In this document: piece by piece, positions 1 through 6,013 of the stretch
Layout of the letters: each line of letters starts with the position of its first letter
How positions within the stretch are numbered: the first letter of the stretch is position 1
NCBI GenBank assembly: GCA_037147375.1
Contig: JBAWVI010000060.1
Span: 1 to 6,013, forward strand
From: an archaeon
GTDB lineage: Archaea > Iainarchaeota > Iainarchaeia > Iainarchaeales > CSSED10-239
DNA length: 6,013 nt
Direction of reading: 5' to 3'
Notes under the pieces: generated by a model
Database searches by the model: none
Told to the model about the DNA's origin: nothing
What the model saw: only the letters and a program-made list of their open reading frames with translations
Made by a program: the position numbers and the translations under genes

Positions 1-742
1 CTAATGCATACGATGGTTGCTGACGAGGGATAAACTTCTTATACAATCTCATGTAATCTAATGAACTGACTCCCGCAATCTTATATGGCATCAAGGGATC
101 ACGTTCATCAAACTCTACAATGTTCAATGGGGACAATGAATTGGCATTCTTGGCACCAACGATTTTCTTCATCCTATTGTATAGATACGGAATATCGAAT
201 GAATCGCCATTCCAATGTATAACAATCGTAGGATCGATCTCTTTCCATTTATCTAGGAATTGCAATAGCATTGTAGATTCCGTATGACAAGAGATTACAC
301 TCTTACTATCATCCGAAGATGACTCCAATAATTTGGCTTCGTCTAAGACATATGCGTAGTAATGCTTTCCGGTTTCATCATATAATGCGATAGCAGTTAC
401 TTTCATAGGGGCCCGTTGACAATAACCTAAGTTAATAGCCTCTCCGCGTTCTGTCTCAATATCTAGAAACACTTTGTTTTGATACGACGCCACATCATCA
501 CTATCCCGATAGATATCAAGTAGTATTGTAAGACACTTATCTACATCCTTCTCATATAAAGTCTTATCGTCTTTGTCGTATTTCTTAGTAGGATTGGCTC
601 TCTTACCATCTAACGTAGCATACTTACCCTCCGGATGAAGTTTATAGTATGTAGGTTGGTACTGGAATTCATGCCAACCCTCGTTGTCGTCTCTTAGATG
701 ACATACTCTGTCCCTATATGAATAGTAAATGGCGTTATACAT
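1..742 (-). CDS. Family B DNA polymerase (T4/RB69 gp43-like), N-terminal and 3'-5' exonuclease domains; 5' part only, ORF runs off the left edge
   Basis: Not in the supplied track because it has no stop in the window. ATG is at 742-740. I read all 247 minus-strand codons down to position 2 and found no TAA/TAG/TGA. Translation starts MYNAIYYSYRDRVCHLRDDNEGWHEFQYQPTYYKLHPEGKYATLDGKR... It contains Exo I FLDIETE (449-469) and Exo II HWNGDSFDIPYLYNR (173-217). GVSSLDYMRLYKKFIPRQQPSYAL (about 2-73) closely parallels T4 gp43 GVSILDYLDLYKKFAFTNLPSFSL as I recall it. An AGGA lies about 9 nt upstream of the ATG. Confidence 0.9.
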   Translation of the reverse strand, partial: MYNAIYYSYRDRVCHLRDDNEGWHEFQYQPTYYKLHPEGKYATLDGKRANPTKKYDKDDKTLYEKDVDKCLTILLDIYRDSDDVASYQNKVFLDIETERGEAINLGYCQRAPMKVTAIALYDETGKHYYAYVLDEAKLLESSSDDSKSVISCHTESTMLLQFLDKWKEIDPTIVIHWNGDSFDIPYLYNRMKKIVGAKNANSLSPLNIVEFDERDPLMPYKIAGVSSLDYMRLYKKFIPRQQPSYAL

Positions 743-745
743 AAC

Positions 746-904
746 TTATTTTCCTGTGCTACCGAACCCACCGGTTCCGCGATTAGTAGATGGTAATTCT
801 GAAAGTTCTTCAAATTCGATTGGAATAACTTCTTCTAAATATATTTGACCTATTCGGTCTCCTACTTCAAAAGGAGAAGGAGTATAGCCTAAATATGGTA
901 TTAT
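746..904 (-). pseudogene. dut: dUTPase C-terminal fragment (motifs IV-V only), 5'-truncated and joined in frame to the ligase ORF
   Basis: The last ~50 residues of the 746-2218 track ORF read ...PFEVGDRIGQIYLEEVIPIEFEELSELPSTNRGTGGFGSTGK*. GDRIGQ (845-862) matches the G(D/E)RIAQ strand motif of trimeric dUTPases. RGTGGFGSTG (752-781) matches their C-terminal P-loop-like motif V. Motifs I-III (including the G-x-I-D-x-x-Y-R-G-E region) are absent upstream. G+C and codon choice (cga, cgc, ggg, acc, ggc) match the polymerase block, not the ligase block. The 5' boundary is approximate (about 890-925). Stop is TAA at 746-748. Confidence 0.8.
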
Positions 905-2119
905 ACTATTTTTAATATCATCGGGTAAGAAAGATTCAAGTTCTTTCTCATTATCTGTAATTATAAGCTCAGTTGGCCTAATGATTGGAGGAATATTGAA
1001 TTTATCCTCAACTATCTTTCTTCTTTCAAAGAAAGGAACATTTATCATTTCCTTTCCATTAAGATAAAGAACATCAAACACCTTTAGATGAAGAGGAAGC
1101 TCTTTTGCTTTTTCATCAATATCATATTTTCTTTTTCTTTGTATAGTTATTTGAAATGAATGATACTTGTTGTTATCTGGATCAAATGCAATTGATTCGC
1201 AGTCAATTATAAAATCTCCTTCTATTTTTTTAATTTCTTCAACTATATCTGGAAACATCTTTGTCATATCTTCTTCATTTCTTGAAAATATTTTTACATG
1301 ATTTCCAATCTTATGAATCTGTTGACGAAATCCATCTATTTTTGAGTCTACTGCGAACTGTTTCTTTTTATCTTCCTTATCTTTACCTAATCTCTCTATA
1401 ATTTCTGGAAAGCCGCTTGCTCTTTCACAAAGAGCAGGCTTGATTGGAATAAATGGAGTAATACTTACGCTTTCAAGATCTTTCATTCCACCCAGCTTAA
1501 TTATTTTTGCAATTAATCCAAGATCAGAAACTTGATTATACTTATTTGTAATTATTTCTTTTGCAATCTTCTGATCAACAGATGGATCAATAGACGCTAG
1601 AGCATCAACTATTGTTGAATCTGAAAAACCTAGTCTAAATGAAATTGGAAACTTAACAACATACTTTGCTTCTTTTTGGGAAACATTAAAAAGAATTGAT
1701 TCAAATAACTTAAGCTTTTTTTCAATAGTTCCTTTTCCACTAATCTCTGCAATCTTTTCAAATGTTTCATAAACATCTAAAAAGGATAGTTCTTTTGAAA
1801 ATAAAGTTTTTTGTTGCTTTGTAACAGGCGTACCTTCGATGATTAAACCAAGATCTCCAACCTTAAGAAGATCTTCTTTGATTTTATCTTCTGGTTGTCC
1901 AAGATATCTTGCAGTTAAAGAAATAATTGTTGCTTCACCAATATTTATCTCTCTTCCTTGATACTTAGGTCCAACCTTACCTTGACAGAAATAAACAAGT
2001 TTGTTAATATTTTCTTTTTCGCAAAGCACAAATAATTCATGAAGAATAGATGTCATAGTTAAGCGTGAAGAAGTATCTCTTACCTTATCAAAATATTCAC
2101 ATACTTTACTAAATTCCAT
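905..2119 (-). CDS. lig: ATP-dependent DNA ligase, archaeal/eukaryal Lig1-like (DNA-binding domain plus adenylation domain through motif IIIa); 3'-truncated before motif IV
   Basis: The likely true start is ATG at 2119-2117 (MEFSKVCEYFDKVRDTSSRLTMTSILHELF, a typical ligase N-terminus). Motif I is SKIDGFR, with the adenylated Lys at 1340-1342 and the motif at 1325-1342. Motif III is FIIDCESIAF. Motif IIIa is LKVFDVLYLNGKEMINVPFFERRK. The protein is colinear with Pyrococcus-type ligase as I recall it. ELESFLPDDIKNS parallels the segment just before EGLMxK in human LIG1. Motifs IV, V and VI and the OB-fold domain are missing. The frame instead continues into the dUTPase tail (one open frame, 746-2119). 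Confidence 0.88.
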
Positions 2120-2150
2120 ATAAATATAATATAGCAAAAGATTTAAAAAT

Positions 2151-2177
2151 AAGAAAAAGAAGAGAAAGAAAAGAAAG
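2151..2177. repeat. 27-nt uninterrupted purine (A/G) run; polypyrimidine on the coding strand
   Basis: Read directly: aagaaaaagaagagaaagaaaagaaag. It lies in the 77-nt spacer between the orphan gene stop (2197) and the probable ligase ATG (2119). It is the source of the FLFFLFFFLFL string in the track's N-terminal extension. Confidence 0.85.
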
Positions 2178-2196
2178 TAAAAATAAGAATCAAACT

Positions 2197-2889
2197 CTAG
2201 ATGATTCTTATAGTACATCCTGTACTTCTAAGAATATCTGTAAATGTATTCTCACTTTTATCTAGATTCTGGGGGTGAAGATAAACTTCTTTATTATCTC
2301 TATATTTAAGATAATCTCTAGAGTTAACAAAGTATACCATCTTTTGAACAGAAATTGAATTTAAATTAACTAATATTGATTTTCTTTGATCACTTGTTAA
2401 AAGAATAATATCCTTCCTATCTCCTTGTCCAGTATAGTCCTTAAGAGTCTTAACTAAATGGTTATAGAAAAAATATGATATAGGATAATTTGTTATAGGA
2501 GGAGATTCTGTGTAAGGTCCAGTTTCAAAATAAGTATAAATCTTATATTGTTGTTGCAATTCAATAGAACTTAGGTTAAGTGCTTTTGAAAGAATAGTAA
2601 ATTGTCCATCTTTCTTAATTGCATTATCAACAGTTTTTTGCTTTTGTTTAATTCCAAGATCAATATCTTTTTGATTTGAAAAACCAGTATGAAGAAGAGC
2701 CATGTCATCTGTTTTTTTATTAAATGATTCATTATCTTTAACCTTTGTAATCTCTTCCTTTAAGAGATTCATTAAGTCATCTTTTTCAAACTTATCTTCA
2801 GTTAGTTGTTTAAGCTTTGAGTTTGCTTTTGTTATTGATTTAGGGGTTACTTCTTTTTTGCTTTCTGTATGTATTTTTGTTTTTACCAT
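2197..2889 (-). CDS. Hypothetical protein, 230 aa: Lys/Glu-rich N-terminal ~100 aa plus a C-terminal aromatic-rich domain; no family recognised
   Basis: A 693-nt open frame in ~28% G+C DNA is unlikely by chance, because stop codons are AT-rich. It is co-directional with its neighbours. A weak SD-like GAGATGAT (2895-2902) lies 5 nt before the ATG at 2889-2887. I recognise no catalytic motif. A PIP-box-like string QYKIYTYF is at 2527-2550. Confidence 0.65.
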   Translation of the reverse strand: MVKTKIHTESKKEVTPKSITKANSKLKQLTEDKFEKDDLMNLLKEEITKVKDNESFNKKTDDMALLHTGFSNQKDIDLGIKQKQKTVDNAIKKDGQFTILSKALNLSSIELQQQYKIYTYFETGPYTESPPITNYPISYFFYNHLVKTLKDYTGQGDRKDIILLTSDQRKSILVNLNSISVQKMVYFVNSRDYLKYRDNKEVYLHPQNLDKSENTFTDILRSTGCTIRII

Positions 2890-2967
2890 AGATAATCATC
2901 TCTAATATATTTTTTAATTAAAATAAAATAGTAATAAATAATATTATTAGATGAATTAATAAAGATA

Positions 2968-2984
2968 TTGGTTTAGTAAACCAA
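2968..2984. repeat. Perfect 17-bp palindrome TTGGTTTA-G-TAAACCAA
   Basis: Read directly: 2968-2975 ttggttta, centre g at 2976, 2977-2984 taaaccaa (the exact reverse complement). It lies 13 nt downstream of the pyrF stop, in the longest intergenic spacer of the window (2890-2996). Confidence 0.9.
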
Positions 2985-2996
2985 ACTATAGATTAA

Positions 2997-3761
2997 TTAT
3001 AAATTTTTTGCTATATCTTGTAATATTTCATAACCAGCTTTTAGTCTCTCCTCTCTAGTTTTTTGATCAGTTATTGCTCTTCCAATAACTAAAATACTTG
3101 AACCATCTATGATTGCATTTCCTGGAGTAAACACTCTTTTCTGATCAGCACCAGCAGGAGTATTAACACCCTTAATTCCAGGAGTTACATACATGAAATT
3201 AGTAGGTAATTTATCTTTGATTGCATAAAGATCAGCTGCAGAGCAAACAATTCCATCAAGTCCTGCTTCTTGTACAAGTTTTGCAAGCCTTAATACTTGT
3301 TCAGGAACCTCTCCAGATATATTTAATTGATTATTCATAATATTCTTATCAATACTTGTAAGAATTGTTACTCCAATAATCTTTGGCATATATCCTCCAT
3401 ATTTTTCAGAACCTTTCTTTGCACCCTCAACTGCTGCTTTAAGCATTTCAAGTCCACCAGACGCATGAACATTAAACATATAAACACCAAGCTTTGTTGC
3501 AGCTTGTGCAGCACCTTTAACTGTATTTGGGATATCATGATACTTAAGATCTAAGAATACATTTGCACCATATCCTTGAACAACCTTTACAACCTCAGGA
3601 CCAAACCTAGTAAATGTTTCTTTTCCTATCTTAAATAAACCCACAACAGGACTTAATTCTTCAACTCTTGATTTTACGTCTTCAATAGTTTCAAGTTCAT
3701 CAAGCGGTAAACAAACTTTTGTTCTTGCTAATTTTTCTTTTTCATTTAAACTAAACTCCAT
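2997..3761 (-). CDS. pyrF: Orotidine 5'-phosphate decarboxylase
   Basis: 254 aa. Signature FLDLKYHDIPNTV (D-x-K-x-x-D-I-P-N-T catalytic motif, D71/K73/D76), with LPLD near the N-terminus and FKIG. It is colinear with Bacillus-type PyrF, including VHASGG and the C-terminal VIGRAIT phosphate-binding loop. SD AAGGGGG is 8 nt upstream. Confidence 0.95.
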   Translation of the reverse strand: MEFSLNEKEKLARTKVCLPLDELETIEDVKSRVEELSPVVGLFKIGKETFTRFGPEVVKVVQGYGANVFLDLKYHDIPNTVKGAAQAATKLGVYMFNVHASGGLEMLKAAVEGAKKGSEKYGGYMPKIIGVTILTSIDKNIMNNQLNISGEVPEQVLRLAKLVQEAGLDGIVCSAADLYAIKDKLPTNFMYVTPGIKGVNTPAGADQKRVFTPGNAIIDGSSILVIGRAITDQKTREERLKAGYEILQDIAKNL

Positions 3762-3769
3762 AATTTATG

Positions 3770-3776
3770 CCCCCTT
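3770..3776 (-). promoter_or_regulatory. Shine-Dalgarno site for pyrF (AAGGGGG)
   Basis: The minus strand reads aatAAGGGGGcataaattATG, with an 8-nt spacer, in the 17-nt gap after the pyrC stop. Confidence 0.65.
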
Positions 3777-3778
3777 AT

Positions 3779-4723
3779 TTATATTTTAAATGTTTTAATT
3801 ATGTTATCATACGTTAACTTATCTATTTCATTTGTTGATAAACCTAAGGTAGGTAAATATTCTTCAACAAAAATTTTGTAAAGATATAAAGATGGAAATC
3901 CAGACATATATGGTGAAAAAAGTTTTTCTCCAATTGCGTGTGATGCATGATCAGTTTCTATCCAATCAATCTTTCCTTTTGCAAGATCATCTCTTAAAGA
4001 ATTAACTTCCTCTTTCTTTCTTAATGGTGGATTCATCTTATACAACAATCCATCTTCTCTAGCAAGCATACTTTCATCCCAAAGAACATGATGTGGAGTT
4101 ACTGCACAAGTTATTTTTAGATCTTTTTCAGAATTTATTAGATTAACTGATTCTGAGCAAGATACGTGACAAATATGTAACGTACCTTTAAAGTTTGCTT
4201 CTTTTGCAAAACTAATTTGATCTTTTATTGATTGTACTTCAGAAATTGTTGGTCTTGAGTATGCATGTGTGATTGGAATATCTGGATTAAACATATTATT
4301 ATCAATAAATGACTCCTTTTCACAATGCAATGCAATAACTCCTTTATAATTATTTTCAGCAAGTGTTTTGTAAACTAATCTTTGTTTATCTTCAGAAATG
4401 ATTGCTAAGTCTCCAACTGATTTGCCAGCAAAAAACTTTATTCCAATAACTTCATTATATTTTTCTGTGATTCTCACAGCTTCTTGAAGTTGTTCTTGAT
4501 TAGAAGTTGCTCCAATATATAGATGATATCTACCTCTTACATCTTGTGGAACAAGATTCAACCTTTCAATAACATCCTTCTCGTTTAGGATAGGAGGAGA
4601 TGTGTTTGGCATATCAAATATCTTATCAACTCCTTGTTCGTCACAAACCTTAAAGACATGTTTAATAGTATCTTTATAGTTCTGATTTCCATCCCTACAA
4701 TGAACATGTGGATCTATTCTCAT
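3779..4723 (-). CDS. pyrC: Dihydroorotase, short amidohydrolase-core form (314 aa)
   Basis: Metal-ligand pattern of the DHOase/amidohydrolase fold: DPHVHCRD (H6, H8), GIKFFAGK (candidate carboxylated Lys96), ALHCE (H133), HICHVS (H183/H186), ETDHASH (D258). Also present are DMPNTSPP and KMNPPLRKKEE, both conserved DHOase strings. SD AAGAGGTG is 7 nt upstream. Confidence 0.9.
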   Translation of the reverse strand: MRIDPHVHCRDGNQNYKDTIKHVFKVCDEQGVDKIFDMPNTSPPILNEKDVIERLNLVPQDVRGRYHLYIGATSNQEQLQEAVRITEKYNEVIGIKFFAGKSVGDLAIISEDKQRLVYKTLAENNYKGVIALHCEKESFIDNNMFNPDIPITHAYSRPTISEVQSIKDQISFAKEANFKGTLHICHVSCSESVNLINSEKDLKITCAVTPHHVLWDESMLAREDGLLYKMNPPLRKKEEVNSLRDDLAKGKIDWIETDHASHAIGEKLFSPYMSGFPSLYLYKIFVEEYLPTLGLSTNEIDKLTYDNIIKTFKI

Positions 4724-4730
4724 AATATTT

Positions 4731-4738
4731 CACCTCTT
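4731..4738 (-). promoter_or_regulatory. Shine-Dalgarno site for pyrC (AAGAGGTG)
   Basis: The minus strand reads aaAAGAGGTGaaatattATG, with a 7-nt spacer, in the 22-nt gap after the pyrE stop. Confidence 0.7.
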
Positions 4739-4745
4739 TTTAATC

Positions 4746-5420
4746 TTATTTTTCTATTTTTGGAAAACCATTTTTTGCACCCCAATTAAATGGATCTTTT
4801 CTCCAATCAGCAAGCAATTCTATTTGGTCAGATGTTAAATAATTAATTTCTTTTGCAGTTTCTAGAAGAACATCATATGTAAGAATTGATCTTACTTCAG
4901 TTTTTTCAGGAAGAACATCAAACTCAGTTTTTGCTTTATCAAGTCCATAACTAAATATTGATAAACAATATTCTACTTTTCCTTTTGCATCTCTCACTGC
5001 TTGAACTGCTTTTGCAGAAGACCCACCAGTTGAGATAAGATCTTCAATAACAATTACTTTTTTTCCTTCTAAGTCCTTATCAGCATCAAGACCTTCAATT
5101 TGATTTTTAAGTCCATGATCCTTTGGTTTATCTCTGATGTATATCATTGGCTTGTTTAATAAATCAGCTAAGATTGTTGCGTGAGGAATACCAGCAGTTG
5201 ATGTTCCAGCAATTACATCACACTCTATTTTTTCATTATCAATAATTTCTTTAAATCCTTTTGCAACAAGAGCTCTATACTCTGAATAGAATAATAACAT
5301 TCTATTGTCATTGTATATTGGCATTCTATAACCGGATGCCCAAGTAAATGGGTCTCCTGGTCTTAGCTTAATTGATCCTATGCTTAATGATATTTTTGCA
5401 ATTTCTTTTCCATAATTCAT
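4746..5420 (-). CDS. pyrE: Orotate phosphoribosyltransferase
   Basis: 224 aa. FTWASGYRMPIYNDNRMLL matches the Bacillus/Gram-positive-type PyrE N-terminal signature (FTWASGIKSPIYCDNR as I recall it). The PRPP-binding motif KVIVIEDLISTGGS is at 5019-5060. SD AGGAGG is 7 nt upstream. Confidence 0.95.
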   Translation of the reverse strand: MNYGKEIAKISLSIGSIKLRPGDPFTWASGYRMPIYNDNRMLLFYSEYRALVAKGFKEIIDNEKIECDVIAGTSTAGIPHATILADLLNKPMIYIRDKPKDHGLKNQIEGLDADKDLEGKKVIVIEDLISTGGSSAKAVQAVRDAKGKVEYCLSIFSYGLDKAKTEFDVLPEKTEVRSILTYDVLLETAKEINYLTSDQIELLADWRKDPFNWGAKNGFPKIEK

Positions 5421-5427
5421 ATTTATT

Positions 5428-5433
5428 CCTCCT
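5428..5433 (-). promoter_or_regulatory. Shine-Dalgarno site for pyrE (AGGAGG)
   Basis: The minus strand reads aaaAGGAGGaataaatATG, with a 7-nt spacer. The site lies immediately after the pyrD stop codon. Confidence 0.7.
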
Positions 5434-5434
5434 T

Positions 5435-6013
5435 TTATTTCACATTGAAATTGTACTCTCTATCTTGATCTGATTTTTCTTTGAGCTTACCTCTAAAATC
5501 ATCTAAACTCTTATACCCTTTCTTTTGCATTAGCTCTTTTAACTCATTTGATATTCTATTAAATGCATTTGGTCCTTCTTTTGCATATGTGGTTGCAATC
5601 TGAACCATGTCTGCTCCTGCAAGAATAAATTCAAACACATCTGTTCCAGTTCTTATTCCACCACATCCAATTATCTTAACTTTATTATTTAAAAGTTGAG
5701 AGAAACCAAACACATTTCCTAAAGCAATTGGTTTAATAAAATCTCCACCAAGTCCTCCAAGTCCTTTCTTTGGTTTAATAACTGCTTCTTCTTTTTCTGG
5801 ATCGATGACTAAGCAATTACCAACTGAATTAATTAGAACTGCAAAATCAATCTTAGTATCTATAAGAATATCTGCAATCTGCTTTTGATGGACTTGATCA
5901 AGATATGGTGGTAATTTAACAGCAATTGGTTTATCTGTTAAGTCTCTTGCTGCTTCAAGAACCTCTCTTGAATATTCGAAATAATATCCAGCTTGCGGTT
6001 TTCCAATTATGTT
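5435..6013 (-). CDS. pyrD: Dihydroorotate dehydrogenase, class 1 (1A-like), C-terminal 192 aa; ORF runs off the right edge
   Basis: The track's 92-aa call begins at an internal GTG. The same frame stays open to position 6013: NIIGKPQAGYYFEYSREVLEAARDLTDKPIAVKLPPYLDQVH...LINSVGNCLVIDPEKEEAVIKPKKGLGGLGGDFIKPIALGNVFGFSQLL...IIGCGGIRTGTDVFEFILAGADMVQIATTYAKEGP. NSxGN, GGLGG-x-x-IKP and GxGGI-x-x-G-x-D are DHOD FMN/substrate motifs. GKPQ and VKLPPY resemble class 1A (Lactococcus PyrDa / yeast URA1 type) rather than 1B or class 2. Stop is TAA at 5435-5437. Confidence 0.92.
   Translation of the reverse strand, partial: NIIGKPQAGYYFEYSREVLEAARDLTDKPIAVKLPPYLDQVHQKQIADILIDTKIDFAVLINSVGNCLVIDPEKEEAVIKPKKGLGGLGGDFIKPIALGNVFGFSQLLNNKVKIIGCGGIRTGTDVFEFILAGADMVQIATTYAKEGPNAFNRISNELKELMQKKGYKSLDDFRGKLKEKSDQDREYNFNVK

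Follow-up and report, generated by a model that had tools for sequence, protein, structure and literature searches.

An in-frame DNA ligase–dUTPase composite in an archaeal contig is most likely an inter-genome chimeric join

ATP-dependent DNA ligases of the Lig1 type combine a DNA-binding domain (PF04675), an adenylation domain (PF01068) and an OB domain (PF04679), and a ligase deprived of motifs IV–VI and of the OB domain carries out neither self-adenylylation nor nick sealing. The active sites of homotrimeric dUTPases (PF00692) require motifs I–V, which are supplied across the trimer, and cannot be formed from motifs IV–V alone. In metagenome assembly, inter-genome translocation was the commonest misassembly class in the CAMI benchmark datasets (PMC9661791).

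The window analyzed here, that is, the whole stretch of 6,013 nt, carries on its minus strand a single open frame that contains parts of both enzymes. Similar to Lig1-type ligases, the frame encodes residues 1–397 identically to the ligase of an Iainarchaeota-like DPANN archaeon, but in contrast to them, its product is without motifs IV and V and without the entire OB domain including motif VI. It resembles homotrimeric dUTPases in that its last 59 residues contain motifs IV and V. Compared with the inter-genome translocation class of metaMIC (PMC9661791), the locus shows the same single sharp join of unrelated genomes, a composition shift and truncation of both genes, and one parent is intact elsewhere at 100% identity; unlike that class, the second parent was not found, and the evidence for the join is from sequence. 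Library preparation or in silico joining would yield a sequence indistinguishable from an assembly chimera. The features assigned in the window, with the evidence for each, are as follows.

1–742, minus strand: start of a phage gene for a family B DNA polymerase (PolB), encoding 247 N-terminal residues with the 3′–5′ exonuclease domain (PF03104, PHROG 262)
746–926, minus strand: end of a foreign gene for a trimeric-type dUTPase (last 59 codons and the stop, 746–748), without motifs I–III (Pfam, PHROG and structure-chain matches, motifs)
926|927, no strand: junction (base-by-base alignment to ERZ4201038 NODE_13013, BLAST end-points against three archaeal contigs, shared protein prefix)
927–2119, minus strand: 5′ part of an archaeal gene for a Lig1-type ATP-dependent DNA ligase, codons 1–397 out of 589 (Pfam, protein search, contig alignment, motif positions)
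929–1438, minus strand: ligase adenylation domain, residues 228–397, with motifs I, III and IIIa only (PF01068)
1595–2116, minus strand: ligase DNA-binding domain, residues 2–175 (PF04675)
2120–2218, minus strand: AT-rich upstream stretch, open in frame by chance and outside the gene (low-complexity F/L/Y translation; intact homologues called from MEFSKV as 589 aa)
2197–2889, minus strand: 230-aa orphan ORF (no Pfam or PHROG match)
2997–3761, minus strand: pyrF (Pfam, relatives' contigs)
3779–4723, minus strand: predicted compact dihydroorotase, 314 aa (match to solved dihydroorotases)
4746–5420, minus strand: pyrE (Pfam, relatives' contigs)
5435–6013, minus strand: pyrD, C-terminal 192 codons (Pfam, relatives' contigs)

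The longest minus-strand frame spans 746–2218 and encodes 490 aa, or 457 aa (746–2119) when started at MEFSKV; as this is the start used by the intact ligase homologues, the 457-aa reading was adopted. Its product comprises, in order, the ligase DNA-binding domain, the adenylation domain as far as motif IIIa, dUTPase motifs IV–V and the stop. In the Pfam search, PF04675 matched residues 2–175 (profile 1–174 of 174, E = 2e-33), PF01068 matched residues 228–404 over only positions 1–177 of its 204 (E = 9e-37), PF04679 had no match, and PF00692 matched residues 418–456, corresponding to profile positions 91–129 of 129 (E = 0.0019). At 18.4 bits the last match is slightly below the curated cut-off of 22 bits, because the dUTPase piece is short. 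Ligase motif I (KIDGFR) was located at residues 260–265, motif III at 303–312 and motif IIIa at 345–355, followed by dUTPase motif IV (GDRIGQ) at 420–425 (window 845–862) and motif V (RGTGGFGSTGK) at 447–457 (window 749–781). Ligase motifs IV, V and VI were sought in the 457-aa product and are missing, while all three are present in the intact 589-aa homologue.

These Pfam envelopes and motif positions confirmed an earlier, sequence-only reading of this DNA, which had described a single frame joining a ligase front to a dUTPase end and had assigned ligase motifs I, III and IIIa and dUTPase motifs IV–V to the places where they were found. The profile searches proposed there gave the same outcome, as the product contains no OB match anywhere and no complete PF01068, and its C-terminal 59 aa do match dUTPase. 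The two remaining frames across the junction were likewise found closed, as had been claimed, with many stops in both. With ligase motifs IV–VI, the OB domain and dUTPase motifs I–III missing, neither half is predicted to be catalytically competent, in agreement with that reading, and the fusion product, if ever made, would be inert, judging from the established knowledge of both families.

The archaeal side was then compared with its relatives. A protein search retrieved a 589-aa ligase, encoded on ERZ4201038 NODE_13013, that is 98% identical across the first 89% of the query. Through exact look-up of the neighboring OMP decarboxylase, two further contigs were reached, the 22,909-nt ERZ4223250 NODE_2176_length_22909 (L005) and the NCBI MAG contig CAYUKR010000028.1 (L006). 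Window 927–6013 aligned with the terminal 5087 nt (positions 1–5087) of NODE_2176 at 100.000% identity, with 0 mismatches in 5087 nt, and the identity ended abruptly at 927; position 1 of NODE_2176 is a physical contig end, with which the right end of the window coincides. The identity to ERZ4201038 NODE_13013 (L001) was 99.56% over window 927–4792, and that to CAYUKR010000028.1 was 99.83%.

In both NODE_2176 and NODE_13013 the ligase gene is complete, encoding 589 aa with PF04675, the whole of PF01068 (204/204) and PF04679 at residues 457–564, and the intact protein contains motif IV (EGIIAKD) at 407–413, motif V at 442–455 and motif VI at 552–564. Downstream of it, both contigs carry a 47-aa ORF and the genes of a KaiC-like ATPase, Rpb5 and RpoB, and NODE_2176 that of RpoA too. 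Relatives from five further samples encode ligases of 79–89% identity and full length (586–591 aa), located after pyr genes, and where the contig is long enough the ATPase, Rpb5 and RNA polymerase come next in the same order. The named homologues place the lineage among the DPANN archaea, near Candidatus Iainarchaeum / Diapherotrites.

Among the remaining archaeal genes, the 314-aa ORF at 3779–4723 had no Pfam match at E 0.01 and matched solved dihydroorotases over chain residues of about 53–315 (E = 4e-24); its predicted product is a compact dihydroorotase without the usual N- and C-terminal extensions. The slot between pyrF and the ligase gene, filled by the orphan ORF in the window, is variable, being occupied by a DUF3368 and UPF0175 pair in three relatives (L039–L041) and by a 233-aa ORF in another (L037). 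The pyrD gene is also variable in the lineage. CAYUKR010000028.1, which diverges from the window rightward of 5755, has only a 92-aa C-terminal remnant of it after ProRS (4993–5714 of that contig), in the more distant relatives L037 and L038 the interval from ProRS to pyrE contains no pyrD, and in L039 and L041 it is split into ORFs of 64 and 249 aa.

Base-by-base alignment to NODE_13013, together with the BLAST end-points against L001, L005 and L006, fixed the exact breakpoint. The match to the archaeal contigs extends up to window position 927 and is lost at 926. Along the coding strand, the sequence is ...GAA TCT TTC TTT AAT TCA... in the archaeal contigs vs. ...GAA TCT TTC TTA CCC GAT... 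in the window, so that the junction codon TT|A encodes Leu398, vs. TTT for Phe398 in the intact ligase. The protein prefix common to the window and the intact ligase is 397 residues long and ends with ELESF (F397, window 929). The earlier placement of the ligase boundary at ...IKNS was thus eight residues too far, LPDDIKNS being part of the foreign piece. The join cuts the ligase within its adenylation domain (profile 177/204) and the dUTPase after motif III.

Two local details were noted beside the join. A 7-bp hairpin at 928–948 was given no weight, its z score being −1.25 with 26 of 200 shuffles folding equally well. The independent MAG contig CAYUKR010000028.1 (GCA_964445425.1), from the same population, ends inside the ligase gene at window 971, 44 nt from the join, which may be a coincidence, or a sign of a variant, a coverage drop or a read-graph problem there.

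On the other side of the junction, the sequence is of phage type. The PolB gene starts with an ATG at 742–740 and continues beyond the left edge of the window, and the gap from the dUTPase stop to the PolB start is 3 nt. The PolB fragment matched PF03104 (E = 1e-18) and the DNA polymerase family PHROG 262 (E = 1.5e-38); with T4-like and cyanophage PolB it shared about 30% identity. Higher identities, of 72–76%, were obtained to PolB of uncultured viral and metagenome contigs at four loci that came from pattern-based locus searches, while a protein search of a 5.8-billion collection gave 40% at best. When searched alone, the last 59 aa of the composite product matched the dUTPase family PHROG 135 (E = 6e-11) and aligned to the C-terminal about 45 residues of solved trimeric dUTPases (E = 2e-7). 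The sequence-only reading had called this piece the last third of a dUTPase; its C-terminal origin was upheld, while its size was corrected, as 59–60 residues of a parent of about 140–165 aa amount to slightly more than a third. The missing motifs I–III span about 80–100 residues.

In all four of the closest PolB loci a dUTPase gene ends 15–20 nt upstream of PolB, and in L007 and L043, the contigs holding the entire gene, it is complete with 141–142 aa. Because the nearest PolB relatives keep this pair with a complete dUTPase, the dUTPase–PolB pair was judged native to the phage side and truncated in the window. The dUTPase piece is 48–51% identical to the dUTPases beside PolB in these nearest relatives, and at most 77% identical to other metagenomic dUTPases. 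In its own nearest relatives (62–77% identity), motifs III and IV are separated by an insert, and it is in this insert region that the break in the window falls. Unlike the PolB-adjacent dUTPases, which are of the short 141–142-aa subtype, the window fragment is thus of an insert-bearing subtype, and its first 12 residues did not align to short dUTPases because the fragment starts within the insert region.

A parent of window 1–926 was sought and not found, the best amino acid identities being 76% (PolB) and 77% (dUTPase), and blastn of window 1–950 against 50,697 phage records gave no match. A search for both missing halves had been proposed earlier; the ligase C-terminus was recovered, in the complete 589-aa gene of the relatives, and the phage parent with the dUTPase N-terminus was not.

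Several irregular genes were observed among the phage-side relatives. The closest full-length dUTPase relative, Logan DRR438537_281323 (L079), is a single frame save for one in-frame TAA after ...VVATEIL at position 192, which, in this phage-like contig of 28% GC, may point to an error in sequencing, to a pseudogene or to recoding of the stop codon. ERZ1023652 NODE_1497 (L078) carries at 2830–3036 a free-standing 68-aa ORF, the remnant of a dUTPase C-terminus, in which motif V is degenerate (NNRGSYGSTGK); the ORF adjoins a gene for a Type III restriction-modification C-terminal domain. Gene calling divided the PolB of a distant relative (L002, 4685–7214) into two genes that overlap, one for the exonuclease part (330 aa) and one for the polymerase part (519 aa); this PolB may be split or frameshifted.

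Base composition also differs between the two sides. The GC content was 0.379 in window 1–926 vs. 0.300 in 927–6013, and the 926-nt windows of the archaeal contig ranged from 0.243 to 0.347, with a maximum below 0.379. At third codon positions (GC3), the dUTPase fragment (749–925) had 0.153 and PolB (2–742) 0.385 (Fisher p = 0.0007), so that the third-position shift lies nearer to 745 than to 926; the archaeal genes had 0.13–0.17, similar to the dUTPase fragment and not to PolB. In the relatives L043 and L007, dUTPase and PolB were equal to each other in GC3, and the nearest dUTPase relatives are on contigs of 28% GC with no PolB beside their dUTPase. The GC3 contrast and the subtype mismatch, as read from the sequences, suggest a natural module exchange between related phages of differing GC. 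The possibility that dUTPase and PolB were themselves brought together by a second artefact was considered and rejected, as the dUTPase stop and the first Met of PolB are both intact at the boundary and the adjacency is kept in four related loci. Of all the observations, the GC3 contrast alone speaks, mildly, for a biological connection with a low-GC host.

Recurrence of the composite frame was evaluated in several collections, as the sequence-only reading had advised, and none was found. The exact 457-aa and 490-aa products had no record among 153 billion gene positions, and exact 26–30-mers flanking the join were absent from IMG/VR, the JGI metagenomes and the GTDB genomes. Among the matches listed, none of the 120 ligase homologues contained PF00692, while PF04679 was present, or the protein truncated, in 120 of 120; no ligase domains were found in the homologues of the dUTPase fragment. 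Exact look-up of two neighboring proteins led to three contigs only, two with an intact ligase and a third that ends inside the ligase gene. A literature search found no described ligase–dUTPase fusion in titles or abstracts. A differently composed ligase protein was met in the JGI data, the 618-aa P0098, which is annotated with a UbiA prenyltransferase (PF01040) together with the ligase N and adenylation domains but lacks an OB domain; it belongs to a cluster of four member sequences with one contig on record, and this odd ligase fusion may likewise be chimeric.

Taken together, the window very probably represents an inter-genome chimeric join, made in assembly, in the library or in silico, that stayed in frame by chance, and not a real feature. 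Each side of the join matches a different genome, the right one NODE_2176 at 100%, where the sequence continues as an intact ligase, and the left one a phage dUTPase–PolB module. Positions 927–6013 are a piece of the chromosome of a low-GC Iainarchaeota-like DPANN archaeon, which carries pyrD-pyrE-pyrC-pyrF, the orphan ORF and the first two-thirds of the probable replicative ligase gene, and positions 1–926 are from a phage replication module, with the dUTPase 3′ end and then the start of a T4-like PolB. Two unrelated DNAs are joined end to end, with both genes cut mid-domain and the frame kept by chance, so that a single 457-aa ORF presents itself to a gene finder or a reader; preservation of the frame had a one-in-three chance and requires no selection. 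The most likely interpretation is that the join is artefactual rather than biological, and it may have arisen through misassembly of two genomes, from a chimeric molecule in the library or by joining in silico. NODE_2176 ends where the window ends on the right, the contig of the window itself is absent from the indexed assemblies, and no assembly on record has the phage side; all three observations fit any of these three origins. The earlier view of the frame as a breakpoint and not an evolved fusion is consistent with an intact ligase that is 100% identical at the nucleotide level up to the join, a complete dUTPase beside PolB in relatives, the composition shift and the lack of recurrence.

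Among the biological alternatives, an illegitimate recombination in vivo would have joined or inserted viral DNA into the ligase gene of an archaeal sub-population, leaving a defective provirus remnant or an infection product. The window sequence is contiguous with zero Ns, the GC3 of the dUTPase fragment is host-like, the contig break of CAYUKR010000028.1 near the join is one that a polymorphic insertion site could give, and the low GC of the PolB relative L007 (0.307) makes low-GC hosts plausible for the clade. Against this, such an event would destroy the putative replicative ligase of a reduced genome, the intact ligase is the sole allele on record, the GC3 of PolB is far from that of the host, and PolB of the T4-like type is known from bacterial viruses. 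The viral side is, moreover, broken inside the dUTPase gene and not at an attachment site. No tRNA genes, no Rfam elements, and no direct or inverted repeats flanking the join were found within the window. A site-specific provirus is therefore not indicated within the 926 nt of viral side covered, and an integrase could lie further left. Recombination in vivo is thus considered very unlikely, and its specific form, in which a virus with a T4-like PolB recombined into a DPANN chromosome and left a defective fragment in the ligase gene of a minor sub-population, is regarded as highly improbable. If the in vivo join were true, an uncultured virus clade would be physically linked to a DPANN host.

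A virus genome or transducing particle with a recently captured 5-kb block of host chromosome would account for phage genes that directly adjoin host DNA. The host block, however, consists of at least 5 kb of housekeeping genes, is identical to the chromosome and reaches the very end of the chromosomal contig, the captured ligase is cut mid-domain, and no such virus was present among the records searched; a rare packaged hybrid molecule would normally not assemble either, and this possibility is barely credible. Finally, an evolved and selected fusion, in which the ligase DNA-binding and partial adenylation module acquired a new function with the dUTPase C-terminal arm, has in its favor the frame that is open for 457 codons and nothing else, and is effectively refuted, with next to no probability left to it, as it recurs in no collection searched, its ligase part shares 100% of its nucleotides with an allele that goes on to encode a normal ligase, which leaves no time for selection, the breaks inside the adenylation domain and after dUTPase motif III leave both folds incomplete, and the composition shifts at the join.

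As a chimeric join, the composite frame adds no new enzyme to either family, and its relevance is as a flag of contamination or misassembly. Such a join can be recognized when an in-frame ORF consists of two halves that are both incomplete domains and one parent is intact at 100% identity. A contig with such a join would place phage genes in an archaeal bin, or archaeal pyr genes in a "viral" contig, and would thereby create a false virus–host link and a false multidomain protein family.
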